64,000 nt of DNA, from positions 2,331-66,330 of IMG/VR virus record IMGVR_UViG_3300044846_002605. One strand, 5' to 3'. Shown here piece by piece: positions 1 through 26,196 of the stretch. The stretch is from a virus. The notes under the pieces are model-generated. The model did no database searches, was not told the DNA's origin, and saw only the letters and a list, made by a program, of their open reading frames with translations. The stretch's first letter is position 1. Each line of letters starts with the position of its first letter. A program made the position numbers and the translations under genes.

Positions 1-3000
1 AACAACAATTGGAGCTTTTACTGCATTACCCATTCTGTGTTTAATAATATCAGCTTTCATCTTATAAAGTGCCTGCTCTAAAGCAGCTGACAATGGTGAA
101 TTTCCAATTGCAATTTGTCCTTTTGATGAAACTAATTCATTTGCAAATTGAATTTTATACTTGATGTTGCGGTTAAGCTCTGTGATAATTTTGTCATAAG
201 CAACAGCGGTTCCTTTTTCAAATTTTTCTTTTTCAGTTAAACTATCAAACCATTTGTTTTCTCTGTCATCATTAAACAGTTTTCCAACTAAATCTTTTGC
301 TCCTAAAGTACTAGCAGTTACTACTGGGCTATTAATATCATAGTTCAAATCTTCAAAAGAAGAAGTAGATTTTCTCATCTGATAATATTTTCCAATCGCA
401 GCATAAACAGGTACTTTTACATAACCTTGTTCTTCTAAATAATTTACAGCCATCTGATCCATTCCATTGGCAGTTCCAACATTAAATATTTTTACACCGG
501 CTTTAATTGCTTTATCAATGTTTGGCTTATGGTATGAATTAAAAGTGTTGTCTAAAGCAATTTGGAACTCTTCAATTGAAACATTTTTTATTCTGTTTGC
601 AAATATTCCACTACCAAATACCCAAACTACATCTGTAGATTTGAAACGTGTGCCTTTTTCCGCCAGTTTCCCAGGATATTTTGCTGTTAACTCATCAACA
701 TAACTCTGACTAGAAGATTTAGCGTTAGGGTTCACTATTGTTGCTTGTCCAATTGCCATTGTAGATGCATTTGCCATAGCTTCATCTTTAACTGAATGAA
801 CAGGCATAAGCTTTAATCCTAAACCGCCTATTGACAAGAATCCTTTTTTAGCGGATTTAGATTTATATTCTAGTGTTGGAAAATCCCCTGAGTTGTTTAT
901 TCCAAAGTAATCTAATAGCAACTTATCAAATTCACTTTGATTTTGATCTGTAGGAACAACCAGTTTCTGATTAAGAATTGCTAATTTTTTGTCTTTAATT
1001 GACTCAGCAAATTCTTCAGGAGTGTATTCTCCTTCTTCATCAAAAAACAAACCTGCTGTTAAAGCCAATGTGTCTTTAGGTAATCCAACCAATGAACTCT
1101 TAATAGAAACATTATTAAATGAAAGCAATGTTTCTGGAGTAGCTGTAGTTTTACCTAATGCCAAATTATTGACTTGATAATTGTAACCTCTTACACGCAT
1201 TCTATAATTGTTTTCAAGCATGTTAATAAATGACTCTTTAAATTGGCCAAGAAGTTGTAAATCTGGCACAATTGGTTCATTTTCTTTGTTAAGGTTATTT
1301 AATTCAGCAGCTTTGATGTTGTTATCAATTTGATTTAACTCATTGATAACTCTTCCAATACCAATTCCATTGTCAATAGTTTCATGCAAATGTTCAGCAT
1401 CAATAATTTTACCTAAGTCATATTGCGACCTGCGGTTTAATCCTGTTTGCATCATAGCAATGTGATTAAACAAACCAAAAAATTCTGCAATTTCTGGACG
1501 CGAATCATTTCTAAGATTAGCTAAGTTTTCTTTATACTGTTTTCTTAAATTAACATCAGAAATGTCAGGCAAGTACATGTTTGATTTTTTGCTTTTCTTA
1601 TCATTGTTAAATTTCATATCTCTGATAAGAGCATATTTTTCAACCAGCTCTGGATTTTCCTGCTTGAATCTTTTAAACATGTTGGCTACACTAGTAGGTC
1701 CGGTAAAGAAAGAATTATGATTTCTTGAATTGTAAAGAGCTATCTTTTGTTTTAGATACTCCGTTGGATATTTCTTTTTTGCACCATCCAAAAAGTAATA
1801 ATCTTTTTCTAATTGCTCCGTTGGAATACCATCTAGTTTTTGATATTCAATTTTGAATCTTACATACTGGTCTAAGTTTTTAAAATTGCTTTGGACATAT
1901 TTTAATTCCAACTCAGGGTTGTTAATATCATTACCTAATAATGCTCCACCAAAAGATACAGTTTTATTTTCTTCATCTATGGTAAATGGAGCATTTGGAT
2001 CTGAAAGATTAGGCTTAAACGTGTATCCACCATAAGTACCTTTTTTAAACAAGGAGTTTTGATACAAGAACCAGATAAAATCATTTTTAAAATCTGTTCT
2101 TAAAACTACATCAGAAGTACCTTTTGGTTTATGATCCATAATCTCTTTGTCCAATGACACTTTAACCAGTGCCGGATTATCTCTTAAACTAAAGTATCTT
2201 TCAAAAATGTCAACTAAAAATTGATCATTATCGAATTGACCAACTGGGCTATTTTTAATACCCTCACTTCCAAACCAAGCTTGAGGTACATAAGTTTCTC
2301 TTGATTTAAATTCTTTGATGTCATCAATTCTTTTTTGAGCTTCAGAAATTGTAGCAATTTTGTTAGTATCAAAACGAGTAAGTTGCTGAAATTTGGAAAC
2401 ATCACTAGCCATTTTTTCAATGTGAATATATTCTGCTAAAGCTTCAAGCTGTCTTTTATCAATTGTGCTTTGACCAACAAGTTCTCTTAACTCATTTTCA
2501 GTAAAGCTTTCTGTATTCCTATTAGCTATGCTTTTGTAGTTAAATGATTCATACCCCAAAACCGCAAATAATTCTGAGTGATTATTGAATATCATTTCTT
2601 GAGCTTTTGCATTCACCCTTGAATTATTGACAATAGGATTTACCTCTGGATCTAAATCAAGCGTAGAATAAACACCACTTAATTCTTTTTTGTACTGGTT
2701 ATATTCCATTACCAAAGGCGTAGATGAAAGATAAGTCGCACTTTCCAAACTTACACCTGCCATAATCATAAATAGCAATGTAGGCGTATTTTGTTTGTTA
2801 CCTTGCATGTTGAATATCCAGGCATCTTTAGCAACATCCACATAACCGTTAATCATCTGAGATAATAAATCTGAAATAGATTGGTTCTTAACATTGTTAG
2901 CAATACCAAGAGCAACATGCTCACCTAAAGCAGAAGTAAGTTTGTTGTGATCTAATTTAAAAGTGTAATCCTTAAATTTATTTACCACATTTTGAGCTTC

Positions 3001-6000
3001 TGTGATTGTCTTTTCATTTGGCATTTGCTTTTTCAAAGAAATCAATTCTTTTTGTGCATCTGCTGGCAAAGAATCACCGTGTTTTTCTCTTAATTCTTCA
3101 ATCTTTAAATTAATTTCTGAAGCAAGAGCTAAAACTTGTATTTGCTTATCAAATTCAGCTTGTTTTTTAGCAGAAACCGCATTTAACTTAGCACCAAATG
3201 TTTGAAACATTGCATAGTAAGTTGCTGTTACAGCTGCTATTCCAAGCGAATCCATACCAACAGAGTTCTCTTGGTGCTTCAACAAGTTATATTCATAGTC
3301 AAAGATTGTGGTAGGAGAAACACCATCAGTGCTGTCATCATTGATTCTTTCGTATTTGTTAAAGCGTGTAGCACCATCTCTTTTTCTAATTGCTTTTTCC
3401 ATTTCCTGAGCAATTGGTAAAGCGACATCTGTAGAGTTAGTAGTGATTAAGTCTTTAATGTTTGAAGGGAGCGTAATTTTTTCAGTAAACAATGCAAGCA
3501 TCTCATTTTCTAATCCTTTGATGGACTTGCCATAAATCTTTCTTTGAATTTCTTCTCTGGCTGCATCAAGTTGAGATAATTTAGATTTTTCTGCATCAAT
3601 TAAACTTTGATTGTAATTGTAAAAATCAGTTGCTAATTCGGCACCCAATTCATCAAACATAATTCTTTTAATTTCTGCTTCTTGGAACTCAATTAGTTCA
3701 TTTACCTGTTCTAGTTGCTCAGTGTACTGAGTAATGAACTTTTGACGTTGTTTAAATGAAACATTTTTAAATTTCCATAAACCATTTTCTGCTGCATTCA
3801 AATAACCATTTAATTCTCTTCTTGTTTCATAAAGATCTTTTTCTAATTTTTGTTGATCCTGAATTTGAGCTTTAACATCTGCAGCTATTTCATTACTTTG
3901 CTCCCAAAACAACTCACGGTCCTGATACAAAGTATCTATTCTTTCCTGAACAGCCTTTAGTTGCTGTGTATATTTATCTTTTTCCTTATACAACTCTTCA
4001 ACTGATTCTTTTACATCAGCTCTGTATTGTTGCAACTCGACTTTATTCCCAATCTTAACAATGTTTGGGAACTGAGTAAACAATTTATCAATATCATAAT
4101 CAGATCCAGCTTTAGCAACAATCTCTGCTGGCAAAATAACTATTGGACCAGCCCATTCAGGTAAAAATTCAGCAACTGTAATTGACTCCAATGCATTTGG
4201 TCCCTGTGATGGAATACGATCACCTGCAATTTGTAAAAACTGAGCATGCTTAGCATTCCATTCTTTATTGCGGATTGACTCATTCAATCTATTCAAAGAT
4301 GCATTGTAATTCAATACAGATTTACCATCTTTATCTTTTTCATAAACTGCAATTTTCTTACCATCAAAGTGATCAAGATACAAAAGCTTTTTAAATCCGC
4401 CCTGAAGTGAAATTTTCACCTCCATGCTTTTTACAATCCAACTTTTTGTGTCTTCTGTAAGAACCGGATTTCCATTTTTATCAGTTATGTGATAAAAAGA
4501 AAGGCCATTAGAACCATAATTAAAGATGTCTGCATCAGTTGGATTTTCAAGTTTAGCAAATTTAGCAGCGCGTTCTTTGTTCTCAAACATTGTTCCTGGT
4601 ACTTGAACTAAAGCTTCACCATTTACATTAAGCGAGCGTAGTTTTTTATCAGCCAATGTCATTAATATAGCCTCAATCTTTTCACTATACATAGACAATG
4701 AAAAATCAAGAGTTTCTGCATTTTTGGATACACTGATGATATAATCAATATCATCTGAAAGCATGTCATTGCTTTTCATTTGTTTTTCCAAATAATCCAC
4801 AAGCTTTTTAGGGCTACCTGTTAATTTTCCTGAAGCGTCATAAGTTAAACCTAAGTCATCAATTAACTCTTGTTTAAGATGAGTTTGTATTTTTGAAATT
4901 ACAACTTCATATCTTTTGTACCAATCATAATTTTTAGATGCGGCTCTTTTCTTTGACTCAGATAAAGCTTTCCACTTTTGAGTTCTTTCTGCTTCAGATA
5001 AATCTGTTTTATAATCTGTAGGGATTTGTTCTTCATCAAACAAACCAAGAGTAATCATCTTTCTTTTCTGCGTAGGCAAAGTAATTTTTCCTTTGTATCC
5101 CGGAGCTAAATAAATCTGATTTTTTAAATACTTTGAGTGGATTTGATTTACAGTAAACTGTACATCATTTGTTTTTCTTTCATCATCATAAAACTCATCA
5201 AACTTTGCAGTTGGCTCCATCCTTTTGGATTTTTTATCCATTGCCAATTCCACTTTAGAGATAGATGACAATTTAGATCCTGACTCCATGGTAATGTAAT
5301 CTACACCCTGCTCCATCATTTTTTCATGAAGATCTTGTAATGGAGTACCAGCTATAAGATCAGGAATCAAAGGCATCAAAGAGTACTTGTGGAACGCCAT
5401 CATTTGCAAGTTAAATGCAGCATCTGCATTATTTACTTGACCATAGTATTGAAACTTTCTTACAGGAAAAGTTACTTTGCGATCTTGATCAGTAAGAGGT
5501 GTGCCGTCAAGCATTTTTTTATAAACTGCATCTTGAGCATCAGACCATTCACCACAAGCAAGATTTAAAATACGGTACATGTCAAATGAAATCCAACCAG
5601 CACCATCTGCTTCTTTCATTTTGTTTTTAGTACCATAATCTTTTGTATCAATCAGTTCATTCCACTGTTTCAAATACACCGATGCAGTTTTCTTTTCTTG
5701 GATTACTCCAGAATTTATGTATCCTGAATAAGTACGGCCTGTTTGTTTTTGATTATGATTTTCTGCAAAACCAAATGCTTTAAAGCTTGGTTTGTTTACA
5801 TAACTCAAAAATGCTGAGTCATTAGCAAATATTTTACCAGTTGAAATTAAACCGGCAATACGCTTGTGATAACCTTCACCTTTAACATCATGAATTGCTG
5901 CATCACCAATAAACAGTGTAGCAAAGTTTGCATTTTGAATAAAGTTATTGATAACAAATGTTTTAAACATTCGCTGTCTTGTAACATCTACTTCTTCATC

Positions 6001-9000
6001 AGCAGTTTTTTTGTAATCTGCAAGAAGATTATCAGAAATAGTAAGCTGTTTATTTTTTCTGTTGAATAAACCTGTAGATCTTGTTTCAAAATAATTTTTA
6101 AGCTCTAAGTCAATTTTCTTTTTTAACTCTTTGCTAAGCAATTTATTTAAAACATTTGGATTATTAACATCAGCAACCTGAGATTGAGAAATGTTCAAAG
6201 CTAGTAATTGATCTTTAGTAGATTTAGAAAGTATATTTGCAAACATGTAAAATGCTCTACCTCTTTTCAAATAAGCAGCATCAAAAACAATTTCTTTTTC
6301 AGATTCCAAATCCTCCATTGCTTCATTAAGCCTGGTTATTCTAACCAATTCCGCTTCTAAATGAAGATAAAACTTATCATACAAAAGTGTAGTATTTTTA
6401 TCAATGTCGTAAGCAGGAGTAAAAATTTTATTGATGTCTTCTTTAGGAAACTCAAGTTGATTTTTAACAATCTGGCCATTTCTTTTAATTGGCGCATGTG
6501 CTGTTAAAGATGTAGACTTATCAGCAGTTCTTAGAATTTCTTGTTTTCCTTGTAAAGTCAAATCAAAATCAGTAATAAATTTGGCTTTTTCATCAAGCTT
6601 AATTGCACCACTACCTTTATCATCATTTTCAAAAATGATTTTAGATCCAGACAAACTTTCAACGGTGATTTTAAAATTAGAGTTTCTAGTACCGCGGACT
6701 GCCGGGTTAGTAGAATCCAAGTTAAACATATTGATTAACCACGGAGAAGCCGCAGCAAATGGATTAGTCTGAACATTGAATACCTCAAGACCTGATCCAT
6801 TTAAAATTTCATCGTAATGTTTAGCATCATTTAATGCACTCACCATTACACTCAATGAAGAGTTGTATGACTTTTCACTTTGATTTTCACCTTCAGCATT
6901 TTTACCCATGGAACTAGAGTTCTCATCAGAAAACATATACTGAAGTTCTTGCAGTTGTTTAAACCACCCGTTTAATCCAGTTTGAGTAATTTTTTCACCG
7001 TTGGATATGTAATCAAAATCATTGAAAACATCAGCAAGCTGAGTAATTTTTTTGTCTTTTTCTAAAACAGCGGTTTCTCTGTTCATCAAAGACTTTTGAA
7101 TATTGGCAACAATTCCTGGATCAATTCCCAAAGCAGGGCTTCCATTAACTAAAATATCTCTGACAATTGGATCATCAACTAAGTCAATTCCAATTTGATT
7201 TAAAAACTCAAATGGAAGAGCTGCAGCTTTTGTAAGTTTGCCGGTATAAACATCCCCTTCTTTAATATCATCTTTGCTTTCTACCCAAACTTCGCTGTCT
7301 TCAGTTCCAGAAATTAATCCAAATCCTACTTCAGCGTAATCTTCACCTAAATCAAATGCATTTAATGCATATTCACCAGTGTCCCCTATTTCTTCAAAGT
7401 ATCCTGTACCTGTTGAAGAAATATAAACAAAGTTGTCAGACCAATCTTTTCCAACTCTATTTGAAGCAGCTTTAGCTCTTCCAGAACGTGATTCTAACTT
7501 GACAGTTTTGGTTTTAGTTTTATTGTCAGTTGTAACAACCTTTTCAATAATAAACTCTCTTAAAAACAAATCTGTCTTATTCATTACTTGCCAAAATGCC
7601 AACCATGCTTTTTGCTCATCTTGAGTAATATTTGGATTAGTAATGTCACCAAGTTTTGCTAGTATCTGAGCAATCTCAAAATCTTTTTTAGCTGCCTCAA
7701 CAAGCTTTTTATGCATTTCAACTCTATCAGTTGTATTACGCAACACCTTGCTTGTTTTAGCAAGCATTTGTACAAATGGCTGAATTTTTTTAATACCTAG
7801 CGAGTTGACAATAAATGGACCTTTACCGTTATTAGAATGCGCGTGAATAGAACTCAACAATTGTCTTGTTTGAGCATCTGTAGTTTCAGCAAGAGATTGT
7901 TCTGTACCTGTTCTTCCAAATGTATAAGTCAACGCTCTTGTTTCCTCATCTAATGTATCCAAGTAATCTACATCTTCCTGGTTGATTTGAACATTGCTGT
8001 AATTATTCAAAAACAAACCAATTAAGTTTGTATTCTCCTCTGCATCTAAGTAAAGCATTGCATCTTCTGTATTACCAAAAGCCTCAATTGCTTTATTCAA
8101 AGTTTTTAATGCAAAATTATCTTCATCTGTAACAGAAGACTTGATGATGTCCCTTTGTTGAATCAACTTATTTTTAATAAAAGTCAAAGCTGATTCTAAG
8201 ATTTCAGGACTTTTTGCAACAGCAAACATACCGTAACCATTTACAACACCTACTTTCTTTTTAAGCTTTTCAATTTTTTTAAGAACAGCATCATGCTTTT
8301 TAGAACCAACCGGATAATTTGCTGATTCAATTTGTAAAGTAGCAATTTGCTTGTTTACTTTTTTGTCAAATACACCACTAGTTTTAAAATCAATGAACTC
8401 ACTCATTAATGACTGCATTGATTCCATCAAAACATTAACTTCTTCTAATGAAAAATCAGTATCTTGATATTCAGAAATGCCTTCAGATTTAATATCTTTA
8501 AGCATTTGCTTGTAAGCCTTTGCGTGTCTATCAATTGTTTCTTCTGAAACATTTGCTCTATTTACTCCAGCTGCAATATCTGCTTTTATTCTTTCTTTTG
8601 CTAATTCAGCATCTAAAGGCATCAATTTATACTGAATGTTTGATTCAGGCAGTGCTTCTTTAATAGCTTGAATAAAAGGTCTTCTTTTTTCTTTAGTTAA
8701 GTTTGTTGTATCAAAAATAATCTTCTTGCCATTTTTTATAGCCTGTATTGTTCTTAATGCAGCTTCCTTATAAATCTCTTCATCTTTAGATTTATTATTC
8801 ATGTCACCAGTAAATTCAATTCTCATTTCATCTGGTGAAATAACTTCAAAATCATTATTTGCATTAACTGATTTAATCCATGTTGATTTACCACTGCCAG
8901 ATGTACCAATTGTGAGTATAACATCAGCCGGTGTAGTAGCATTAATTTCAGATGATTTGTACAAAGCAGTTTTTGTAGCCTGCGGATTAAATTTACTTAC

Positions 9001-11394
9001 ATCAATGTTTCCTTCATACAAAGCATTAAACATGGTATTAACAACACTTGCGCTTTTATTAAGAGCAATTGCCTCATTGAATGTCATGTTTTTACCAAAC
9101 ATGCCTTCAAGCATATTCAAGACTTTATCAAAGAACTGCTTTATTCTTACAGATAGTTTTGACTTGCCGCGATTCATTGAATACTCTCTGAATTTTTCAG
9201 CTAGATATTCTTCAATTTCTAAATCTGTGGCAGTTGCAAAAGCTACTGTCTTTGCTTTACCCAGCACAGTTACTTTAAATGTTCCAGGAGTTTTAGCAAT
9301 TTCAGAATACATTGCCTTTCTCTCAGACTCAGTTAAGATGGCTTGAGTAAATGCGTGAAATGCTTCGTGATAAATATCTGTGTTGTTAGATCCAAGATAA
9401 AGATTGATTGAGCTATTCACAAACTCAGCAACAAAACTAGGTCCTTTTTCATGAATTTTATTTCTAAGTGTTTCATTTAAATTCAGGACTTTAAATAACG
9501 GATGAGTTTTAAACCAATTCATAGCCGCTTCTTTTTGCGCCTCAGTTGGTTCCGTTTCCATATTAGTTTCTGCTAAAGTTCTAAAGAAAACATCATCATC
9601 TATTTCATCTTCACCTACTTCTAAATCAGTAACATCTTTAGCAGTAACACCTAATGCTAGGAATGTAGAATAACCGCGTAGTTCATTATTTGAATTGGTG
9701 ACAATAGTTGTGTTTGTATTATCAAGGATATGCTGTCTAATGCTTTTATTACCCAATGAAATCACATTGTCTTCAATTGAAACAGGAACATTTATTACAG
9801 CATCAACATCTGTTACATCTTTAATCCTTAAATTTCTTTTGGCACCAGTTGTAATATACACCTTACCATCTTTGCCATAAAACAATTGGTTTATATCTGT
9901 AGTTTTATCAAATGATTCAAATGGTACAACATTAGTAAACTTAGTAGAATACTTGTATAGTTCAAAAGTTCTAGTTGTAAAATAGTCTTTAAGTGCTTGG
10001 CGAATTGTTTCAGCATTTTCAGGAATAGCTTCAATTTTATGATTATTGATAATCATAAAATATGACAACTTTCTTTTATTAGTTTCAGCATCCAGCTCTC
10101 TTTTAATCATATAAAGAAACTTACCCGCTTCCTTTTTATGAAAATGATAAATAGCTTCTTGTCTTTCACCAGAATCCATATCAGATTGATATTCTGCTCC
10201 AGTGTTACGCTTTGTTCCTTTCTTTTGCAGTTTAGGTTCAGTAATCAACTTTGTCAAAATATCCAATTCTTCATCAGAAATATCCGCCAATGAATTTTCA
10301 TACATTGGTTTTTCCTCTGGCATTGCAGTAGTTCCTAATAAAGGAACATGCATTACTGCAATGGTTTGGTTGTTTGTTTTCTTAACAATAATTGGAACCT
10401 GATCAACATTTGCAATAGTGTTCATTTGAGTTTTCTTGTGGATGTTTTCCTCCACAGTACCCATAGAACTATTTTGAATATTAATTGAAAAAGTAACCGC
10501 CTCTCCAGAAGCATGTTTCTTTTTCATTTGTTCTATAAGATCAAGATAGCCATTTACTTCTTGTTCTGTTTGTAAAGTAGCTTGTTGTAAAGACATACCT
10601 CTTGACATCAAAGAAACTGTTCGTTCTTTAATCCAAAAGTTCAAATCATACTTACTTTGCTTAAATGTAAATACGGGAGTTGTCCCATCTTCATCAATTT
10701 TGTTGTCAACAAATCTTACAATTTTTCCTGTAGAATCAACCGGCACCAAAACATAAGCATCTGGGTTTGTATCTTTGTTAGTATTTAAAACTTGATTTAC
10801 ATTTTGCAATTCGCGTTGCTGTACAAGTTTTAACTGTAAACCGTCAGCATTTTCTGAATTAATGATGGATCTTTGTACACCAAATTCAAATTCTTTTTCC
10901 GGATCTGTTACATTACCTCTGTACCCCACACCCTCTTCATAAACCATTTCCTGATTTGCAGTTTTAAACAAATCCAAAGTAATAGCATTAAACACCATAG
11001 CTGGTGCCGCAGGAATAACCACAGTTGATTTTCCAATTATCTGTCCTAACTTATCAATTACTTTTTGGAAATCCTTTTTATTCTTTGACTGAGATGCTTC
11101 ATAGATTTCCGCGCTCAATTTATTTAAAGCTCCTAGCACATTTGGGTTACTCGCAGAAGGTGTTTCGCCCATATATTGCTTAACCATTTGTGGTGCTATA
11201 GATAAGTGCTGTAGGATCAACTCTCGGTTTCTAGTTTCAGATAAACCAGTATTGCTAAAATCAGAAATTGCCTTATCAAACAATCTGTTTAATAAGGCAT
11301 TAGCTGAAATGTCATTTGTAAATTGGTTTGGAATCTCTTTTTTAAAATATGCACTAAACAATTTTATAGACTCCGGAGTAATACAAACATTCAT
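1..11394 (-). CDS. Giant virion-packaged DNA-dependent RNA polymerase polyprotein, crAss-like two-barrel type (at least 3798 aa, 3' end beyond window)
   Basis: ATG at 11392-11394 one base after the previous TAA, translating MNVCITPESIKLF. The frame is still open at position 1 and the track lists no stop-terminated ORF in this frame. Motifs read by hand: HEAFH (9355-9369), GTSGSGKST (8881-8907), EADGAGWISFDMYR (about 5575-5615), DRIPSQG (about 4200-4222), AGSDYDIDKL (DYDID at 4087-4101). The last matches the DFDID metal-binding loop of crAss-like virion RNAPs such as phi14:2 gp66. Confidence 0.92.
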   Translation of the reverse strand, partial: MNVCITPESIKLFSAYFKKEIPNQFTNDISANALLNRLFDKAISDFSNTGLSETRNRELILQHLSIAPQMVKQYMGETPSASNPNVLGALNKLSAEIYEASQSKNKKDFQKVIDKLGQIIGKSTVVIPAAPAMVFNAITLDLFKTANQEMVYEEGVGYRGNVTDPEKEFEFGVQRSIINSENADGLQLKLVQQRELQNVNQVLNTNKDTNPDAYVLVPVDSTGKIVRFVDNKIDEDGTTPVFTFKQSKYDLNFWIKERTVSLMSRGMSLQQATLQTEQEVNGYLDLIEQMKKKHASGEAVTFSINIQNSSMGTVEENIHKKTQMNTIANVDQVPIIVKKTNNQTIAVMHVPLLGTTAMPEEKPMYENSLADISDEELDILTKLITEPKLQKKGTKRNTGAEYQSDMDSGERQEAIYHFHKKEAGKFLYMIKRELDAETNKRKLSYFMIINNHKIEAIPENAETIRQALKDYFTTRTFELYKYSTKFTNVVPFESFDKTTDINQLFYGKDGKVYITTGAKRNLRIKDVTDVDAVINVPVSIEDNVISLGNKSIRQHILDNTNTTIVTNSNNELRGYSTFLALGVTAKDVTDLEVGEDEIDDDVFFRTLAETNMETEPTEAQKEAAMNWFKTHPLFKVLNLNETLRNKIHEKGPSFVAEFVNSSINLYLGSNNTDIYHEAFHAFTQAILTESERKAMYSEIAKTPGTFKVTVLGKAKTVAFATATDLEIEEYLAEKFREYSMNRGKSKLSVRIKQFFDKVLNMLEGMFGKNMTFNEAIALNKSASVVNTMFNALYEGNIDVSKFNPQATKTALYKSSEINATTPADVILTIGTSGSGKSTWIKSVNANNDFEVISPDEMRIEFTGDMNNKSKDEEIYKEAALRTIQAIKNGKKIIFDTTNLTKEKRRPFIQAIKEALPESNIQYKLMPLDAELAKERIKADIAAGVNRANVSEETIDRHAKAYKQMLKDIKSEGISEYQDTDFSLEEVNVLMESMQSLMSEFIDFKTSGVFDKKVNKQIATLQIESANYPVGSKKHDAVLKKIEKLKKKVGVVNGYGMFAVAKSPEILESALTFIKNKLIQQRDIIKSSVTDEDNFALKTLNKAIEAFGNTEDAMLYLDAEENTNLIGLFLNNYSNVQINQEDVDYLDTLDEETRALTYTFGRTGTEQSLAETTDAQTRQLLSSIHAHSNNGKGPFIVNSLGIKKIQPFVQMLAKTSKVLRNTTDRVEMHKKLVEAAKKDFEIAQILAKLGDITNPNITQDEQKAWLAFWQVMNKTDLFLREFIIEKVVTTDNKTKTKTVKLESRSGRAKAASNRVGKDWSDNFVYISSTGTGYFEEIGDTGEYALNAFDLGEDYAEVGFGLISGTEDSEVWVESKDDIKEGDVYTGKLTKAAALPFEFLNQIGIDLVDDPIVRDILVNGSPALGIDPGIVANIQKSLMNRETAVLEKDKKITQLADVFNDFDYISNGEKITQTGLNGWFKQLQELQYMFSDENSSSMGKNAEGENQSEKSYNSSLSVMVSALNDAKHYDEILNGSGLEVFNVQTNPFAAASPWLINMFNLDSTNPAVRGTRNSNFKITVESLSGSKIIFENDDKGSGAIKLDEKAKFITDFDLTLQGKQEILRTADKSTSLTAHAPIKRNGQIVKNQLEFPKEDINKIFTPAYDIDKNTTLLYDKFYLHLEAELVRITRLNEAMEDLESEKEIVFDAAYLKRGRAFYMFANILSKSTKDQLLALNISQSQVADVNNPNVLNKLLSKELKKKIDLELKNYFETRSTGLFNRKNKQLTISDNLLADYKKTADEEVDVTRQRMFKTFVINNFIQNANFATLFIGDAAIHDVKGEGYHKRIAGLISTGKIFANDSAFLSYVNKPSFKAFGFAENHNQKQTGRTYSGYINSGVIQEKKTASVYLKQWNELIDTKDYGTKNKMKEADGAGWISFDMYRILNLACGEWSDAQDAVYKKMLDGTPLTDQDRKVTFPVRKFQYYGQVNNADAAFNLQMMAFHKYSLMPLIPDLIAGTPLQDLHEKMMEQGVDYITMESGSKLSSISKVELAMDKKSKRMEPTAKFDEFYDDERKTNDVQFTVNQIHSKYLKNQIYLAPGYKGKITLPTQKRKMITLGLFDEEQIPTDYKTDLSEAERTQKWKALSESKKRAASKNYDWYKRYEVVISKIQTHLKQELIDDLGLTYDASGKLTGSPKKLVDYLEKQMKSNDMLSDDIDYIISVSKNAETLDFSLSMYSEKIEAILMTLADKKLRSLNVNGEALVQVPGTMFENKERAAKFAKLENPTDADIFNYGSNGLSFYHITDKNGNPVLTEDTKSWIVKSMEVKISLQGGFKKLLYLDHFDGKKIAVYEKDKDGKSVLNYNASLNRLNESIRNKEWNAKHAQFLQIAGDRIPSQGPNALESITVAEFLPEWAGPIVILPAEIVAKAGSDYDIDKLFTQFPNIVKIGNKVELQQYRADVKESVEELYKEKDKYTQQLKAVQERIDTLYQDRELFWEQSNEIAADVKAQIQDQQKLEKDLYETRRELNGYLNAAENGLWKFKNVSFKQRQKFITQYTEQLEQVNELIEFQEAEIKRIMFDELGAELATDFYNYNQSLIDAEKSKLSQLDAAREEIQRKIYGKSIKGLENEMLALFTEKITLPSNIKDLITTNSTDVALPIAQEMEKAIRKRDGATRFNKYERINDDSTDGVSPTTIFDYEYNLLKHQENSVGMDSLGIAAVTATYYAMFQTFGAKLNAVSAKKQAEFDKQIQVLALASEINLKIEELREKHGDSLPADAQKELISLKKQMPNEKTITEAQNVVNKFKDYTFKLDHNKLTSALGEHVALGIANNVKNQSISDLLSQMINGYVDVAKDAWIFNMQGNKQNTPTLLFMIMAGVSLESATYLSSTPLVMEYNQYKKELSGVYSTLDLDPEVNPIVNNSRVNAKAQEMIFNNHSELFAVLGYESFNYKSIANRNTESFTENELRELVGQSTIDKRQLEALAEYIHIEKMASDVSKFQQLTRFDTNKIATISEAQKRIDDIKEFKSRETYVPQAWFGSEGIKNSPVGQFDNDQFLVDIFERYFSLRDNPALVKVSLDKEIMDHKPKGTSDVVLRTDFKNDFIWFLYQNSLFKKGTYGGYTFKPNLSDPNAPFTIDEENKTVSFGGALLGNDINNPELELKYVQSNFKNLDQYVRFKIEYQKLDGIPTEQLEKDYYFLDGAKKKYPTEYLKQKIALYNSRNHNSFFTGPTSVANMFKRFKQENPELVEKYALIRDMKFNNDKKSKKSNMYLPDISDVNLRKQYKENLANLRNDSRPEIAEFFGLFNHIAMMQTGLNRRSQYDLGKIIDAEHLHETIDNGIGIGRVINELNQIDNNIKAAELNNLNKENEPIVPDLQLLGQFKESFINMLENNYRMRVRGYNYQVNNLALGKTTATPETLLSFNNVSIKSSLVGLPKDTLALTAGLFFDEEGEYTPEEFAESIKDKKLAILNQKLVVPTDQNQSEFDKLLLDYFGINNSGDFPTLEYKSKSAKKGFLSIGGLGLKLMPVHSVKDEAMANASTMAIGQATIVNPNAKSSSQSYVDELTAKYPGKLAEKGTRFKSTDVVWVFGSGIFANRIKNVSIEEFQIALDNTFNSYHKPNIDKAIKAGVKIFNVGTANGMDQMAVNYLEEQGYVKVPVYAAIGKYYQMRKSTSSFEDLNYDINSPVVTASTLGAKDLVGKLFNDDRENKWFDSLTEKEKFEKGTAVAYDKIITELNRNIKYKIQFANELVSSKGQIAIGNSPLSAALEQALYKMKADIIKHRMGNAVKAPIVV

Positions 11395-11395
11395 A

Positions 11396-14300
11396 TTATT
11401 TACATTTTGTTAACTGCTCAAGAATTTGTGAATTTAAATCAGCATTTTCAAGCTTTTCAAATTCAGCTACACTAGCTGTAAAATTATTAAAAATATCCTG
11501 ATATGCCTCTTTAATATAATCAATTTCTTGGTCATTAACAACTGTATCCAAGTTTAATTTTGTATATTCTTGACCTTCTTCAAACACATCTGTAGATTTA
11601 AAAAGTTGCTCCATAGGTAAAGTTTGAACTTCACCTGTAGTAATGTCAACCAAATCCACAGTTTTATCCGCCATGTTGTATGAAAAAATTTGCATTGGGA
11701 CTTCACCAATTAAAACAGACTGTCCAATAAACGCACCTCGGCCTAACCTCTTCATTAACCTGTCATTCAAAAAGTTTCTTTGCGGTAATGTAAATTGATT
11801 GAAAAGATCAGTATTGGTAATCCTATAAGCAGCCAAAAACAAGTTTAAATTTTTGTCATTTTCTAAAGCCTCAATCTGTTTAATTAAGAAAGGAACAAAT
11901 GGATAAGCATCCCCCATTTTTCTTAGTTCTTCTAAGAGTTCTGCTTCAGTTTTATCAACAGCAGTTTGTTTTGCTTGTATCTCATTTAAATATTCCAAAA
12001 AGTCATCAGTGCTCATGTCTTCTTCCGGCATTTCAACTTCTTGATTTGCTGCATCATTTGCTGCTTCAGGATCTGATACATCATAAAGCCCGTCTTCTAC
12101 AGCTTGATCAAATAAAAGTTGCTGAGCTGGAGTCAATGAAGAATAATCAAGCGTAGATAAATTAACCTGTCCTGTAGTAATTTTAAATTCAAGGGACTTA
12201 GTGTACTCTTCAAAATCAGCAGCCGCTTTTTCAGCTTCTTTAGTTCCAATCCAGTTTTCAAATTCCATTTCAGATTCATACTGGCCGTAATCTTGTTCTT
12301 CTTGAAGACTTCTAATTCTTTCTGCTATAGATGTAACCATATCAGAGATAGTCCTGTAATTAGCAAAAATTTCATTAACCGCTTCTTGCATATAAACATT
12401 TGCATCTTGTATATCACTTGCAAAGTCAGCAGCTGCAGCATCACCTACACCATCAGCAGTTTTGTATTTAGATTTGTTTGAAATAAAACTTTTGTAAAAA
12501 GCAATTTCTCCTTTTCCTCTTGCAACATTTTTGGTAATAAAATCCGGATGTACTCTATTTTCTGGATTAGAAAACCAATCCGCAACCAACGCTTCTTGAA
12601 ACAAAGGATCTGTAACCATCACCCCTGAATCATAAATAAACTCGCGAATGGTCATTTTATCCTGAGCTAATTTATTTTTAGGCTGAGCTCTCTTAGCTGT
12701 ACTTGCTCTTTCCTCCAGTGTATAAATAGAACCACTTAAAGCATTACTCCTAGCAATAGTAAGTTTAGTTCTAGAATTGTAGAATGCATAGTTTACAGCT
12801 TTAACAACAGATGGAAGCAGAATTCCTTTGTTCATTAACTCAAAGAATAAATTTATAGCTTGGTCTTCAATTTCTTGAGGAGTGCCTTCAAATTTTAAAT
12901 TCTTTTTGTAATTCTCAGCCTGGAATTTAGCATTTTGTACTACTTGATGTATATTAATCAAGAACTGAGTTTCATCTTCTTTTGTTTTTAAAGGTCTGCT
13001 AAATAACTCTTTGTTGTATAACGCAAGTGCCTTCAACTCGGTTGGTGTTAAAGTAAAACTATACTTCTTACCATTATAGGCAACCTTAATAGGTTCTTTA
13101 CTCTTTACATACTTAGATAAAAGACCATAGTTATAAACAGTACTATTCTCAGCCAACTCTTCAAAGATGTCTTTTTGATAACCAAGTACCGCTTCAGCGC
13201 GTTCTTTTGGTTCCAAGCCCTCAAGTTCGTCAGCAAATGTTTCATTAACAACAGCTATTTGTGAGTCTTGCTCAAGTTTTCTTTTTTTCTTGCTTACAAA
13301 AGCAATCACATCAGGAATCTTGAAGCGGAAAGTTTTACTATCATTCAACAAGTTGTCAATCAAATACGTCAAGTCTGCCTTTGTCAAAATGTCAAAGTCT
13401 TCTTTCAATACTTTTTGCAACAATTCACTTACTTGTTCGCGCTCCATAGCATTGATTGGAACAATTGCTTGTTTCCTTGCTCTGCGTCTAGCTCGCGCTT
13501 CTTCTTTCTGTTGATCTAAACGTTGTTGCTTTAATTGCTTTCCTCTTTCTATTTCAGCTGCATTATGTGCAGCAAGTTCTTCATCAGTTAATTCAACTGT
13601 TACTTGTGGTGGAGGTGCAGGTACAAACTCTTCAGGCTCCTGTTCTTTATTATACTCTATAATTGTTCTCAAGAAAGACATATCATTTGCCATCATTTTC
13701 TGAATGGCATCAATTTCTGCCTCTGAAGGTTCAGCATCAGATTTCACCGTGCCGATTTCAATTTTACTCTGCTCGTTAAGTCTTACAGTAAATCCAGGAC
13801 CAATTGAAGCAACAAGTGAATCAAATATATTTCCAAATTGTTCATCCAGCGCATCAACTTCTTCTTCTGGTGCTTGAGCCATTGAGCGATTTAAAGCCTC
13901 CAGTTGTCTTATCTCTGCTTTATACTTACTTCTTATTGCACCAACTGAATTAGCCGCTAAAACCATTCTGTATTGATCAATAAGCCTATTCTGCAATTCA
14001 CCTGGTAAAGAAGCAAAAGGAGTTCTTTCAGTAATAACCAATGTATTATCTATGTTTACTTCTTCTTCTACCGGTGTTTCTACTGCGGTAGTTTCTGTAG
14101 AAACAATTTGAGCTTCACTACCAAACTTTGCATCATACTCAGCTTGAAGATCTTTAAGATCAAGTAAAAGTTGTGATTTTTGTTTATCCAACTTCATTCT
14201 TTTTCTTAACTGCATTTTTGAAGAAGATGCAATTTGCTCATTGACTCTTTTCAAAAGTTCTCTCTTCTGATTAATTTCAGTTTTGAGTTTAGTTTCTGCA

Positions 14301-17300
14301 TCAATTAAATCCTGTTCTTCAGTTTGCACTTCTTCTTCTTGTGCAGGCACATCTTCTTCAGGAGCATCAATCTCAACATCAATTTCTCTTTCAACTTCTT
14401 CTTCAATTTCTTGAGTACTTCTAATGCCAGTAAACAAGTTAGCTTCTTGAGTTTTTAAATCTCTATCAATATCAGCAAAAACAGAACTTCCGTACTTATT
14501 AAATTTTGGATCTTGTCCCTGGTACATTGCTTTAACAAACCACTCATTACCATTAGGGTGTGTGCCTATAGCTAATAATGGAACCCATTCGCCAAGAGAA
14601 GCTGCTGTAGATCCTGTACCTGTAGATTTGTACATCAAGAATTTCACCTTCTTTGTGCCTTGCTGAACAGTTTCTTCACCTTCTTCAGTGATGTCAGTTT
14701 GTTCAGCATTTAATTCATCTTGAAGAGCATTTCTTTGTTTAAGTGTTGATTCTATTTCTGCATCAACATTTGCATCACTTTGATTAGTTTGTTGAGCAGC
14801 TGGACCATTTTTAATTATTGACTCAGCTTGTTCTATAATTTTTCCTGAAGCCTCTTTAGTAGATAATTTACCATTAAAAGTTTTTAAGTTATCTACAATT
14901 GGTTGAGCAATCTGTTCTGCTGTAAAACCTTCTGGAATTTCTATTGTTACAGAAACATATACAGATGGGCGATTAGTATCCACTGTAGTTACAACAGGAA
15001 CTTTAATATTTACAACTCTTTTTCCTTGAGTTGTGTAGCCTTCATCAAATTCGGCCCAATTTTGATTTCTTTTTACACCATACTCATGTCTAAAATCCGG
15101 GTGAGCATCTGAGCTTATTAAATCTTTGGTTGCGTTATTACTTTTGTTTTTAACTAACCATCCGCCAAGACCATCAAAAACTGTATAATTGAGTTCAGAA
15201 GTATTAGTTGTATCTTTTGTTGATTGAACAGCTTTAACAAAATTTTCAAAACCTCTTTTTTCTACTTCAGCTCTAGTAACAACTTTAACCTTACCAAAAA
15301 GAGGTTTGTTCTTTTTTGCTTCAGCTTCTAGTTCTTGTCTTGCCTCATAATAAAAAGTGCTTTGTACAGGTGTTAAATATTGAGAATCAAAAATTTCTTT
15401 TAATGCAACAACATCATTTCTTTTGGCATTGGTGTCAACTGTTGCTTTTCCTGTAGCTGTTTTTTTAGAACTCAGATCCTTTATTTTTGCATCTAAATCA
15501 GCAATTTCTTTTTGTAACTCTGCTACACGCGGATTAGCTTTTTTGTTTTGTATAGCTTTCTTTACAAATACCGGAACTTCAGCTGTAACATCAATGATTA
15601 ATCTTCCACCAACTTGAGCACGGATGTTTCCATAAACCCAATTGGTAATTCTTGCATCATCTAATTCTTTACCAAGATCAACAAGCTTTTGTGTCCATTC
15701 TGCAACAGCCAAATTATTATTGGAAACTACTTCAGGATGTAAAAAATCAGCAAACAACTCTGGATTGTCGTTAGCATTTTCCAAAAACTCAGTGTTTCCA
15801 ACTTCAATAGTGCGCGTAACTTTTTCTTTAACTTTTTGCTTAACTGTTTGTTTTGCAGGTTTAGTTTGCTCATTGAAATATTCTTCAGCTTCAGCTTTAG
15901 TATCAAATGCTTTAATGTTTCCATCTTTGTCAGTTACCTGCCAAACACCTGGAACCACTTCCATCAACTTGAAACCTTTCTTTTCTACAGAACTAACCGG
16001 TTCAGGTTTCTCTTCTTCTTCTACTGCGGTTTCATCTGCTTTTTCATCAATGTTATCAGTAATAGATTCATCTAATGCCATGTTAGCCAAACTGACCGCG
16101 CGTTGTAATACAGAGCCATCAAAAGTCTTATTAAAAGCTTTCATGATTTTAGCCATTAATGACTTCCACAAAGACTCTTTTTTTCCAGATACTGTATCTG
16201 TAACACCGCCCAAAAATGATTGAAATGCAGTATTGTTTAATGACTCAGATAAAAATTCAGCTGTGCTATTAAACAAAGAAATTTTATCCATATCCAGGTT
16301 AGGATACTTTTTAGCAAATGCATCTTTAGCCTGTTGCATTAAATTTTCAACTTCAGTTTGCAAACTTTCGTTTTCTGCTAAGTTGTCATTTAATTTAGCT
16401 TGAGTTAATGCAGAAAGAACAAGTGTTTCAAAGTTTACTGCAACATTTTTGTAATCAGATCCAGCGTATCTTACATCAATTACAAAGACACCATCTTCAT
16501 TTAATGAAATTGGAAACTCTGCATTGTCAACAAACATAATTTTTGGCATAGAGTCAGAAACTTTATCCAACATCTCTTTGTCAATTTGTGTAAGAAAAGT
16601 ACTACTCTTTAATTTTCTGAGCATTCTTTCTAATTGAACCGGATCAGATAAATCAATTTCTTTTCCAAGTTTGATTCCATATTGTCTAAGTAAACCTTTA
16701 ACGGTTCTCTTGTCTTCAGTGTAACGCAAACTGCGTTTAGAACCACCTGACTTATCCTGAACAATTGTTTTACCTGTAAGCCTAGCATAAAATTTAGAAA
16801 TAATATCTTGAGCTTTTTGGTATTCCTCTTTAGACGACTCTTTGTTTGATTCAATGTTGTAAATCTTAGAAGGCATTATTCCTTTGCCAACTAAATCATC
16901 TAATTCATTTAAATCAAAGAAAATACCGGCTTCCTGTAATTCAGTAAGCATTTCGCTTGATGCAGCTTTTTCTTGAAAAGCATACAACTGATTAGCAATA
17001 TGTTTTTCTTTGTTCTTATCCAAATCCGCCATCATTTCTGCATTGCGGTCAATCCACATTTTAGCAGATGTTGGATCTACAAGTGTATTTACAACATCTT
17101 GCAAAGCCTGAGATTCAGTTTTTAAATCTAAGTAGTCAACAATTGCATCAAAAGATTTTCTGCTAATTGCGCGTTTAACCTCTTCAGCTTCTTCTTTGCC
17201 ATAAAACATTCCATACTCTGCATCAATAGAACGGAAGTCATGATATGCTTCAAACAAATCAGAATAAGCGTCTTCAATTTCATCTACAGATGGTTCCTCC

Positions 17301-23847: not shown

Positions 23848-26196
23848 TTAAGACCGAACATCAGTGTTATTCAATTCACTTGACTTAGTAACTTGATCAT
23901 CTGGTTCAATTACATATTTACCAGATTTCATTGCTAAGAATGCTTTCATTTGCATGTCAGGACTCAATGTAGGAGTTGATTTAGCAAAAGCATTAAACTC
24001 TTGTCCAAACTCTTGTGAGTTATCTTTGACCGGTGTAATGGCTCTATCATTCATCTTAGTAATAATACCTGTAAATGGATCTTTCTTGAAGTTCTCCGTT
24101 GTGGTATTTAAGTTGTAGATGTTAGCCGCATTAGTGTATGCCTGATTAGACAACTGCGTAATTTTATCTTTAGCAGCACTGATGGAATTTGCAAGACTTT
24201 GCTTTAAGATGTTCTCTTTATCATAAAGACCTGTTGCCAATTGCGCATCCGCTGCATTTCTAGCATTTGCTAATTGTGCATTGTACTGTTCGCCTGCATT
24301 GAATACACCGACATTCTTATCAGCATAGTCGCTAATAGCATTTGCTACATCACCATAAGCTTGACCACTTAAAGCCATAGCTGTTGCACCAGCTGCTTGA
24401 GCATTTCCAAATGCTTTAACACCTTGCATCATTTGATTCAACTGCTCATTCTTAGCAGCAATTGTTCTCTCCGGTGAATAGTATGCGCGATCCGGCATAA
24501 CAACTTCAGCAGACTTAGCCCAAGGATGCAATTCAGGAATTTCAAATCTAGCTTGTACAGCACGATTAAGTGAAGCCAAGTCTTCTCTTCTAAAGCCATA
24601 AGGATTTACAAGCGGAGTAGTTTCACCTAATTTTTTATATGCTGGCGGTTTTGTTTCACAAGGAGGACAAGTACCGTCTGCATTTTTTGTAGGAGTTGTT
24701 CCATCCGGACATGTAGGGCATGGTTTTTCAATTGGCGGAGTACAAGGACAAGTTCCATCAGGTTGTCTTTCTGGAACAGTTCCATCTGGACATGCTGGAC
24801 ATGGGCCAGCAGGTTCGGTAAAATAAGATATTTCTCCGGCTGTAGTATTTGTATATGCGCCATCTGCTTTAGAGATTTTTCCTTTTTCACCAGCTTTTGT
24901 TCCCGCAACAACTTCATCAGCTACACCATAAGGATTAGCACCAAATGGCTTCATTACATCTTTTAATTCTTGATCATAAACATCTCTGTTTTTAGATAAG
25001 TTTTCAAAAGCAATGTAAGATAATTGTTCTTGTGTTGCTTTATCCATACTAGGAAGAGGAACACCTAATTCAGCAGACCATTGAGTAATATCTTTATTAG
25101 AAACTGCTCCTTTTGCTGATGGATTTTGATCTGTATCTTCTACTTTTTTACCATGTGATTGCAGAATTAAATTTCTTTTTTGAAACTCAAGATAATCCTG
25201 GAATACTTCTTCAGGTGATTTTCTAACAATTTTTTCTTTGTTTTTAGGATCTTTATCAAACTGAGCATTGTAACCTCTACCCCAGTTATCTCTTTGATCA
25301 GCAGCTCTTTTATATTCTTCAAATAAAGCTGCTTTAAACTTTTCATTAGTAGATAGTTTATTTACAATATAGTCATACTGTTTTTTAGAATTTGTATTAA
25401 CTGTACCCCAGTTTAGATCTTCTTTTTTCGGCTCCTCTGTTTTCTTTTCATTATTTGCTTCTGTAACATCGCCTGCTTCTGTATAATGCGGAAGCTGACC
25501 GCCCATAGCTAATGAAGGAAATGGATATTGCTCATTAGTTGTTGCAAAATCTCTAGCCATGCCGCCCATAGCTTTAGCAACAGCTTGATTAGCTGCACTA
25601 GCATCTTGTTGATTCATTGCAAACATTTCATTTGGATCAATTTGCAATTTATCAAAAAATGGAGATAATCCATTTGGAATACCATCCTTGAATCCTTTAC
25701 GGGATTCCTGAAGTAATTTCAAAGCAGCAATTTTAAATGCAGCATTGTCCATTGACATTTGGGCTGATTTCTTGCTTATTTTATCTGCAGTGTCATCAAT
25801 AAGAATTTGCTTAGATGTATTGATTGCATCAAGCCAGCTTTTTGAAATGTCAGCAAATGTTTTTGGCTTTTTAGTATCAACTCCAAAGTAATCCAAAATA
25901 GCCGGATCTTTGACAATCATCTTTTTGTTATCACTAAAAATAAATGATGTGCCGTCAGATTCTTTATCAGAGTCGGTAGGTAAGTTCAAAGGTGTTCCAC
26001 CTTGACTGTGTTTCTTACCGCCAATTGCATACATTTCATAGATGTTGTTTAAACCTCTACTCATGTTTGTAACTACTGTTTCACCTTTCTCAGCTTCAAC
26101 ATTAGCCATCTTCCTATTTACAGGACCAAGAACTTTTGATAAAGTTACTTTTGGTACTTCTTGACTAGGAAAACCAGTTATTGTGTACTTACCCAT
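23848..26196 (-). CDS. Putative virion cargo protein (782 aa)
   Basis: N-terminal NVEAEKGE...KKHSQGG...FIFSD segment of the kind seen in crAss-like internal proteins; AMGG twice; duplicated CPxCPDGT unit; Ala/Asn/Gln-rich helical C-terminus. Confidence 0.65.
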   Translation of the reverse strand: MGKYTITGFPSQEVPKVTLSKVLGPVNRKMANVEAEKGETVVTNMSRGLNNIYEMYAIGGKKHSQGGTPLNLPTDSDKESDGTSFIFSDNKKMIVKDPAILDYFGVDTKKPKTFADISKSWLDAINTSKQILIDDTADKISKKSAQMSMDNAAFKIAALKLLQESRKGFKDGIPNGLSPFFDKLQIDPNEMFAMNQQDASAANQAVAKAMGGMARDFATTNEQYPFPSLAMGGQLPHYTEAGDVTEANNEKKTEEPKKEDLNWGTVNTNSKKQYDYIVNKLSTNEKFKAALFEEYKRAADQRDNWGRGYNAQFDKDPKNKEKIVRKSPEEVFQDYLEFQKRNLILQSHGKKVEDTDQNPSAKGAVSNKDITQWSAELGVPLPSMDKATQEQLSYIAFENLSKNRDVYDQELKDVMKPFGANPYGVADEVVAGTKAGEKGKISKADGAYTNTTAGEISYFTEPAGPCPACPDGTVPERQPDGTCPCTPPIEKPCPTCPDGTTPTKNADGTCPPCETKPPAYKKLGETTPLVNPYGFRREDLASLNRAVQARFEIPELHPWAKSAEVVMPDRAYYSPERTIAAKNEQLNQMMQGVKAFGNAQAAGATAMALSGQAYGDVANAISDYADKNVGVFNAGEQYNAQLANARNAADAQLATGLYDKENILKQSLANSISAAKDKITQLSNQAYTNAANIYNLNTTTENFKKDPFTGIITKMNDRAITPVKDNSQEFGQEFNAFAKSTPTLSPDMQMKAFLAMKSGKYVIEPDDQVTKSSELNNTDVRS

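Follow-up and report, generated by a model that had tools for sequence, protein, structure and literature searches.

The stretch of DNA considered here (hereafter the window: 64,000 nucleotides, bases 2331-66330 of the 66,330-bp linear viral contig IMGVR_UViG_3300044846_002605) carries on its minus strand, at positions 1-11394, a giant open reading frame (ORF) predicted to encode the virion RNA polymerase (vRNAP) of a crAss-like phage. As was seen from the ORF listing and translation, the frame begins with ATG, runs through 3,798 codons without a stop and is open at the window edge; the window thus holds residues 1-3798 of the product, and the last 391 codons lie past window base 1, at bases 1155-2330 of the contig. 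The full ORF comprises 4,189 amino acid (aa) residues with a mass of 472.9 kDa and is continuous across 12.6 kb, the chance of a stop-free run of 4,189 codons being about 1e-159 at the strand's own base composition. An earlier reading of this DNA (the original prediction) had proposed one unbroken minus-strand frame over the whole of positions 1-11394, and no in-frame stop was found to split it when the adjacent part of the contig was included in the translation. All the motifs quoted in that reading were also located in the translated protein, namely HEAFH (aa 676; 9355-9369), the P-loop GTSGSGKST (aa 830; its GSGKST portion at 8881-8898), DGAGW (aa 1930; 5593-5607), RIPSQ (aa 2393; 4204-4218) and GSDYDIDK (aa 2430; 4084-4107), all of them on the minus strand.

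The RNA polymerase module occupies aa ~1000-3400 of the chain (1195-8397, minus strand). The search with aa 1700-2700 revealed 96 homologs of 2,451-4,881 aa, and at least 502 and at least 423 further relatives were found in viral and metagenome contigs, from which 79 and 77 loci, respectively, were kept; the metagenome loci are only 24-45% identical, so that the close clade was not deepened by them. When the core was compared by tblastn with 50,697 phage records, 19 records were matched, including uncultured crAss-like phages (cr108_1 and others), Dulem viruses, IAS virus and Cellulophaga phage phi14:2, in which the match falls in g066, annotated as 'Catalytic RNA polymerase subunit'. Drobysheva et al. 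(bioRxiv 2020) described the product of the latter gene, gp66, as an RNA polymerase packaged in virions and having the loop DFDID. The profile of 70 aligned sequences covering aa 1699-2698, searched against the PDB with hmmsearch, matched the phi14:2 gp66 chain 6vr4_A with E of 1.3e-101 (profile positions 30-1126 versus chain residues 561-1673); phmmer with aa 1499-2998 as a single sequence retrieved nothing from the PDB, and only the family profile reached 6VR4. The same alignment contains 17 invariant columns: K1844, R1845, D1930, K1980, G1985, K2003, K2041, Q2109, G2259, R2393, P2395, F2410, P2422, G2430 and the three aspartates of the catalytic loop DYDID (D2432, D2434 and D2436; 4087-4101, minus strand). 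The loop is of the DxDxD form, its three Asp being invariant and its fourth residue other than Gly. Its tyrosine, which the original prediction had regarded as notable, turned out to be commonplace, since DY-type motifs are present in 66 of 221 family sequences; the loop census (sequences with the loop pattern, duplicates between collections included) comprised 106 DFDID, 49 DYDID, 43 DFDVD, 15 DYDVD and 8 other variants.

The AlphaFold2 (AF2) model of the catalytic core (aa 1699-2698; 3300-6300, minus strand) contains both double-psi beta-barrels and was obtained with a predicted local distance difference test score (pLDDT) of 87.3 and a predicted template modelling score (pTM) of 0.84. Foldseek ranked 6VR4 first for this model (E 5.7e-21), followed by QDE-1 (4.6e-3), AR9 nvRNAP, RDR2 and the bacterial beta-prime subunit, and VIA-align gave Z of 19.8 for 6VR4 (root-mean-square deviation 3.4 A over 651 residues), the next best structures being RDR2 (Z 14.2) and QDE-1 (Z 13.3-14.0). 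Absence of a double-psi barrel around the DYDID motif had been named beforehand as the finding that would overturn the polymerase assignment, and this objection fails because the two-barrel fold is present in the core model, with 6VR4 as its nearest structure. Beyond the core, the profile of aa 2640-3400 matched residues 1551-1757 of gp66 at 33.9 bits, and homology to gp66 is shown for aa ~1729-3070 (2185-6210). No polymerase family of PHROGs matched the vRNAP. Taken together, the profile match, the predicted fold and the order of genes described below support the earlier call of a crAss-like virion RNA polymerase and firmly place the protein in the gp66/6VR4 family; Mg-dependent RNA synthesis and presence in the virion are known for gp66 and would extend to the present protein by likeness.

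The two polymerases share, apart from family membership by profile and fold, the D-[FY]-D-I-D loop with non-Gly position 4, the location of the gene between two genes of giant virion proteins and the confinement of gp66 cysteines to the termini, considered below. The phi14:2 protein differs in being 2,180 aa long and devoid of the zincin, kinase, Rossmann-like and DUF7831 modules, the HExxH motif of phi14:2 being located on the separate downstream protein gp65 (HEIMH at aa 245); pairwise identity of gp66 to the vRNAP is 24-35% and is limited to three short stretches. The eukaryotic RNA-silencing polymerases QDE-1 and RDR2, the next-best structures (Z 13.3-14.2, 330-405 residues aligned), are ~10-14% identical to the vRNAP and, unlike it, are single-function cellular enzymes rather than virion cargo; gp66 was likewise reported to be structurally near QDE-1-type enzymes (Drobysheva et al., bioRxiv 2020).

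Upstream of the vRNAP gene and on the same strand, PHROGs matches revealed, in order, the terminase large subunit, portal, major head protein, tail-fibre-like proteins and large virion structural proteins, a layout which by these matches is that of a crAss-like structural module. The polymerase gene lies at the far end of this terminase-portal-capsid-tail-cargo module, between two giant genes and tightly packed with both. The stop of the upstream ORF, encoding a cargo protein of 2,772 aa (11396-19714, minus strand; gp67-like by gene order in comparison with phi14:2), is situated 1 nt before the vRNAP ORF, and the downstream ORF of at least 383 aa (bases 2-1150 of the contig, beyond window base 1, minus strand; gp65-like by position) starts 4 nt after it. 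This order equals that of g067 (1,797 aa), g066 (2,180 aa) and g065 (1,421 aa) in phi14:2, all three annotated from tandem mass spectrometry of virions. Orthologs of gp65, gp66 and gp67 were reported in virions and are fused into one polyprotein in some phages (Drobysheva et al., bioRxiv 2020).

The cysteines of the three adjacent giant proteins are distributed in a peculiar way. The vRNAP possesses only three Cys in 4,189 residues: Cys4 at the N-terminal junction (MNVC..., codon at 11383-11385, minus strand), Cys1947 and Cys4189, which is the last residue. The sole Cys of the upstream protein is residue 2771 (11402-11404, minus strand), and the downstream fragment has Cys3 and one more Cys inside its HEFCH motif. 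In phi14:2 (L082) the only cysteines are Cys1797 of gp67 (its last residue), Cys3 and Cys2179 of gp66 and Cys3 of gp65. Among the homologs, Cys is found at position 3-5 in 82 of 96 polymerases and within the last 7 residues in all 209 polymerases with a complete C-end. Overall, Cys makes up 0.06% of the residues of these proteins, and by chance the last 12 residues would include one in 0.7% of cases. Counted over 131 distinct loci, Cys occurs at the polymerase C-end in 121/121 and at the downstream N-end in 111/112 cases, at the polymerase N-end in 87/106 and at the upstream C-end in 76/94. Complete proteins contain exactly one Cys in 13 of 14 upstream, exactly two in 77 of 96 polymerase and exactly one in 45 of 52 downstream representatives; the last 8 residues include Cys in 96/96 complete polymerases and in 0/52 downstream proteins, and the first 8 residues of complete polymerases include it in 78/96. 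As a control, the 34 other ORFs of the window contain 1.9% Cys, 7 of them having it in the first 8 and 6 in the last 8 residues (the remaining ORFs of the loci were discarded as a control set, being contaminated by downstream-type proteins, with Cys in the first 8 residues in 16/24). The exceptions at the N-end are instructive: in 19 zincin-bearing ORFs without N-terminal Cys the zincin is located at a median of aa 1812 versus 765 in the 95 ORFs with Cys, 18 of the 19 have a long N-terminal extension, and 12 of 15 tested extensions show homology to the upstream protein that other phages, among them phi14:2 with its gp67, encode separately. Fusion of the upstream gene to the polymerase thus goes together with lack of the polymerase-type N-terminal Cys.

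Considering this pattern, we tentatively suggest that the gp67-like protein, the polymerase and the gp65-like protein may be joined head to tail via the cysteines of the ends that face each other, the simplest bonds being disulfides that form in the virion, an arrangement which we hold to be just short of probable. Such a chain would be the post-translational equivalent of the fused polyprotein of other members; the three giant proteins would behave as one chain, with a fixed order of ejection, until it falls apart by reduction in the host cytoplasm. If so, no protease is needed for release of the 'polyprotein', and the zincin would need another role. Structural disulfides were reported in crAss001 virions (Bayfield et al. 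2023). Rather unlikely in our view is that the terminal cysteines do not join proteins at all and serve instead for metal or portal binding or as a packaging signal, or arise secondarily from a nucleotide signal located where the genes meet. The low Cys content might be explained just by transit through the oxidising periplasm, and the disulfide reading is built on sequence and not on chemistry. Against these roles stands the polarity of the pattern (upstream proteins with Cys at the C-end, polymerases at both ends, downstream proteins at the N-end only), as does the loss of the N-terminal Cys in the extended ORFs. A nucleotide motif as the cause was rejected, because the genes are spaced by anything from -9 to +58 nt at the junctions, both TGT and TGC are in use and, apart from the stop and start codons, every base there stays at or below 0.9 bit; selection thus acts on the residue rather than on a DNA signal. 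No mention of terminal cysteines was found in the covered parts of the Drobysheva preprint, of Bayfield et al. and of the N4 structure paper (the final Nature version, Yutin et al. 2018 and supplements lay outside this search), and the literature search combining crAss-like, cargo proteins and cysteine gave no match.

The region preceding the polymerase module consists of an N-terminal domain, a zincin-like domain and a kinase. The N-terminal domain (aa 1-590; 9625-11394, minus strand) is conserved in the close clade, being covered by 65-71 of the 96 homologs per 50-residue bin in blastp, and was modelled by AF2 with pLDDT mostly of 80-95. The zincin-like domain (aa ~610-810; 8965-9567, minus strand) is present in one copy in each of 128 locus ORFs. 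In the alignment of 116 sequences H676 and E677 of the HEAFH motif and E729 (9208-9210) are invariant, and H680, E728 and E733 are retained in at least 90%. In the model of aa 1-815 (pLDDT 78.4) a helix (618-630) is followed by strands 638-640, 657-659 and 662-664, the HEAFH helix (673-685) and the helix bearing E729 (724-740), with mean pLDDT per 10-residue block of 73-90 in the helices (aa 611-640 and 671-740) and of 48-69 over aa 641-670, the part holding strands 657-659 and 662-664. This topology agrees with the zincin core of polyvalent proteins, described as an N-terminal helix, a three-stranded sheet, the HExxH helix and a Glu helix (Iyer et al. 2017). Five rows among the VIA top 50 extend over aa 616-801, each of them a zincin peptidase: PprI (Z 5.4), PPEP-2 (5.0), anthrax lethal factor (4.6 and 4.5) and PPEP-3 (4.6). 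Among predicted viral structures (BFVD), 16 entries matched the model of aa 1-815 at E<=0.001, of which 13 are named as crAss-like viruses or marine virus NIOZ-UU157; one entry is titled 'Putative RNAP associated protein fused to zincin protease' and another 'ART-PolyVal-like domain-containing protein'. Pfam and NCBIfam yielded nothing meaningful at E<=10 for aa 1-600, 560-820 and 3400-3800 or for the downstream ORF. The HEAFH segment, noticed earlier as a zincin motif, is thus part of a conserved HExxH...E domain upstream of the kinase that likely adopts a zincin-like metallopeptidase fold, as judged from its modelled topology, the fold matches being weak. The link between zincin and the crAss virion polymerase, for its part, is already published, and gp65 orthologs were reported to carry a zincin-like domain (Drobysheva et al., bioRxiv 2020). 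The downstream gp65-like ORF of the present contig, with its HEFCH motif and 22 bits against the vRNAP zincin profile, apparently carries a second, paralogous domain of this kind.

Two roles for this domain have to be weighed. It might act on the host, opening peptidoglycan or cutting host proteins during or just after ejection. Peptidoglycan digestion was raised as an option by Drobysheva et al. (bioRxiv 2020), the presence of a second zincin in the downstream gene means that zincin function is not tied to one chain, and PprI and Pro-Pro endopeptidases, enzymes that cleave other proteins, are among the nearest folds; on the other hand, Pfam and the PDB profile search provided no sequence link to known cell-wall peptidases, and the fold matches are too weak for inferring a substrate. 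This role appears doubtful. Less likely still, and distinctly improbable, is self-processing, which the original prediction had allowed for and in which the 473-kDa chain, either inside the capsid or once ejected, would be cut by the zincin so as to free the kinase, the polymerase and the C-terminal modules. Such processing would accord with the retention of the domain beside the polymerase in the 128 locus ORFs, with the published view of fused forms as 'likely cleaved' and of the zincin as a possible activator of the RNA polymerase (Drobysheva et al., bioRxiv 2020), and with the autoproteolysis proposed for such peptidase domains (Iyer et al. 2017). It is opposed by the N4 vRNAP, which also has such a domain and is reported to be packaged unprocessed (Iyer et al. 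2017), by the two-cysteine pattern of the polymerases, which fits a chain staying whole, and by the borders of the accessory cassettes described below, at which no common flanking motif was found. The terminal cysteines would offer another way to link and release the cargo proteins.

The P-loop noticed earlier belongs to a polynucleotide-kinase cassette at aa 820-977 (8464-8937, minus strand). Pfam AAA_33 was recognized on aa 825-962 (E 3.6e-17, 63.4 bits versus the cut-off of 27), PHROGs assigned the segment to phrog_505, polynucleotide kinase, and the nearest solved kinases for aa 815-980 were Clostridium thermocellum Pnkp (1.9e-6), Pnkp1 (2.4e-4) and T4 polynucleotide kinase (1.6e-3). In the alignment to 4jst, the solved kinases are matched at both the P-loop and the D-x-x-R stretch, the latter being catalytic in T4 Pnk. 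By these matches the segment is firmly identified as a Pnkp/T4-Pnk-type polynucleotide 5'-kinase, which sharpens the earlier claim; in distinction to its best solved relatives it lacks phosphatase or ligase partners and is inserted in a virion polymerase. Near the other end of the chain, beyond the window edge, lies DUF7831 (PF25176; aa 3915-4024, minus strand; E 7.8e-36, 122.9 bits versus the cut-off of 27).

Both the kinase and DUF7831 form self-contained cassettes whose presence changes, by gain or loss, even between near-identical relatives. The relative P0005 is 97-99% identical to the vRNAP in three collinear blocks and lacks exactly aa 820-977, that is the kinase, and aa 3915-4049 with DUF7831; this pair differs only by the two cassettes and therefore reveals two insert-tolerant sites in the polymerase chain. 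The kinase site is empty in 65 and kinase-filled in 3 of 68 evaluable relatives, and beyond aa ~3906 the 13 evaluable relatives have tails of 13-604 aa. Homolog coverage (means per 50-residue bin, n=96) is 65-89 over aa 1-800, 4-6 over 851-950, 69-96 over 1000-3400, 60-67 over 3400-3750 and 8-14 over 3800-4189. Accessory Pfam domains of 8 kinds (the helicase-type families of P0088 being counted as one) were precomputed in 27 of the 96 homologs: DUF7831 in 11, 2OG-Fe(II) oxygenase in 10, AAA_33 and NADAR in 4 each, His phosphatase in 2, and ART-PolyVal, cpYpsA and PIF1-type helicase in 1 each. At another locus (L050; 3431-3925) a kinase 74% identical to aa 823-977 resides inside the gp67-like upstream giant protein and not in the polymerase; the cassette therefore moves between different cargo proteins. 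DUF7831 was also found at aa 700-823 of a protein of locus L008, and the Rossmann-like module considered below at aa 909-998 of a protein of locus L085. The contig being metagenome-derived, the giant ORF or its cassettes could in principle represent an assembly chimera, which is next to impossible given the kinase at the same site in three independent proteins of other origin (P0008, P0012 and P0015), the unbroken frame and the cassette G+C content of 0.31 and 0.32, like that of the flanks.

DUF7831 was seen as a frequent partner module both in crAss-like polymerases and in small phage proteins; no paper naming it turned up in the full-text literature search.

Between the polymerase module and the DUF7831 cassette lies a conserved beta-alpha-beta (Rossmann-like) module, aligned over aa ~3537-3720 (235-786, minus strand). 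It is widespread, with 285 library matches, 115 of them at E<=1e-10, and many of these are small proteins pairing the module with DUF7831, AAA_33, 2OG-Fe(II) oxygenase, DUF4326, NADAR, RNase H or PIF1. The original prediction had called this segment SLOG-like; a conserved Rossmann-like module is indeed present there, but none of the sequence tests assigned it to a SLOG family. The segment had no SLOG match in Pfam at E<=10, SLOG families were found by Pfam scan in 0 of 51 small homologs of the module, and the YpsA model PF06908 did not match the contig at E<=10. Nor was any SLOG protein matched by two module profiles in the PDB or by tblastn of the module against phages; the word-index search returned 13 matches, none with a Pfam domain, and the hidden Markov model of the module did not match the cpYpsA region of P0089 (hhalign 0.8%). 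Weak Atlas scores of 0.77-0.80 were obtained for phage clusters of which only a minority of the proteins carry YAcAr, DprA or YpsA.

Repeated weak matches (E 0.0025-0.016) of the module profiles to a 45-59-residue stretch of thermosome apical domains were also recorded and probably reflect, as far as the sequences tell, the shared beta-alpha-beta motif.

The ORF is thus very probably the vRNAP gene of an uncultivated crAss-like phage, encoding a mosaic with accessory enzyme modules. From the N-terminus, the chain would consist of the clade-specific domain (aa 1-590), the zincin-like HExxH...E domain (~610-810), the kinase cassette (820-977), the polymerase (~1000-3400), the Rossmann-like module (~3537-3720), the DUF7831 cassette (3915-4049) and a short tail ending with Cys4189. 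On its sequence the protein also has the features of polyvalent proteins, being a large chain with zincin-like and unrelated enzyme domains and an architecture varying among relatives, as was described for N4-like polymerases and further virion proteins (Iyer et al. 2017). By analogy with the work on phi14:2 and crAss001, the vRNAP would be packed in the capsid, ejected into the host and transcribe the early genes, and its extra enzymes may act in the first moments of infection, in RNA-end repair or counter-defence. The earlier view of the protein as a delivered toolkit agrees in this respect with the published idea of polyvalent virion proteins.

Several points weigh against this reading. The phage is known here from sequence alone, the contig is incomplete (CheckV completeness 55%) and the downstream gene is cut at its end. 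The match of aa 980-1699 to the N-terminal third of gp66 amounts to 6.3 bits and is not significant. The zincin fold is called likely and not proven because its Z values of 4.5-5.4 are below the tool's caution line of 8; Foldseek returned no match for this segment at E<=0.001, the PDB profile search returned none, and the Pfam scan of 57 members gave no significant match, one member reaching Tox-MPTase2 at 0.0019. The cysteine link, finally, is drawn from conservation only.

Among known systems, gp47, gp49 and gp50 of crAss001 are similar in being giant, mainly helical RNA polymerase-associated virion proteins, thought to be stored in the cargo zone of the capsid and ejected partly unfolded; they are likened here by description and not by sequence, and accessory enzyme modules or terminal cysteines are not mentioned for them in the covered parts of that report (Bayfield et al. 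2023). The N4 vRNAP gp50 is likewise a giant ejected polymerase fused to an HExxH zincin-like domain, and its relatives bear variable extra domains (ART, lysozyme, RNase), following the same logic of a delivered multi-enzyme chain (Iyer et al. 2017; N4 structure paper). Unlike the vRNAP studied here, it is a T7-like single-subunit polymerase, unrelated to the two-barrel fold, and its zincin is C-terminal to the polymerase, so the likeness is one of architecture and not of descent.

The identity of the crAss-like vRNAP and its link with zincin are already in print, and the core of the original interpretation is correct; new here are the architecture of the clade, the two cassette sites obtained from a near-identical natural pair, and the terminal-cysteine rule. 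In abundance, crAss-like phages rank with the foremost of known viruses, and how their huge cargo proteins are packed, ordered, passed through the tail and activated is treated as an open question in the crAss-like literature covered. The two insert-tolerant sites suggest that the polymerase serves as a carrier for first-minute enzymes, and the terminal-cysteine rule predicts a redox-cleavable link among the three cargo proteins.

Some minor features of the window deserve mention. On the plus strand, a 181-aa ORF at 8801-9346 runs antisense to the zincin and kinase segments and has probably arisen by chance. The tail-fibre-like protein at 36143-37231 (minus strand) and the next ORF (37244-39013, minus strand, no PHROG match) end in cysteine-containing tails (...PVC and ...PVCP, respectively), which may relate to the tail disulfides reported for crAss001. 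In the cargo region, the 782-aa protein encoded at 23848-26196 (minus strand), for which no PHROG match was obtained, contains eight Cys in close pairs (466/469, 483/485, 493/496 and 510/513) that look, from their spacing, like a metal-binding cluster.

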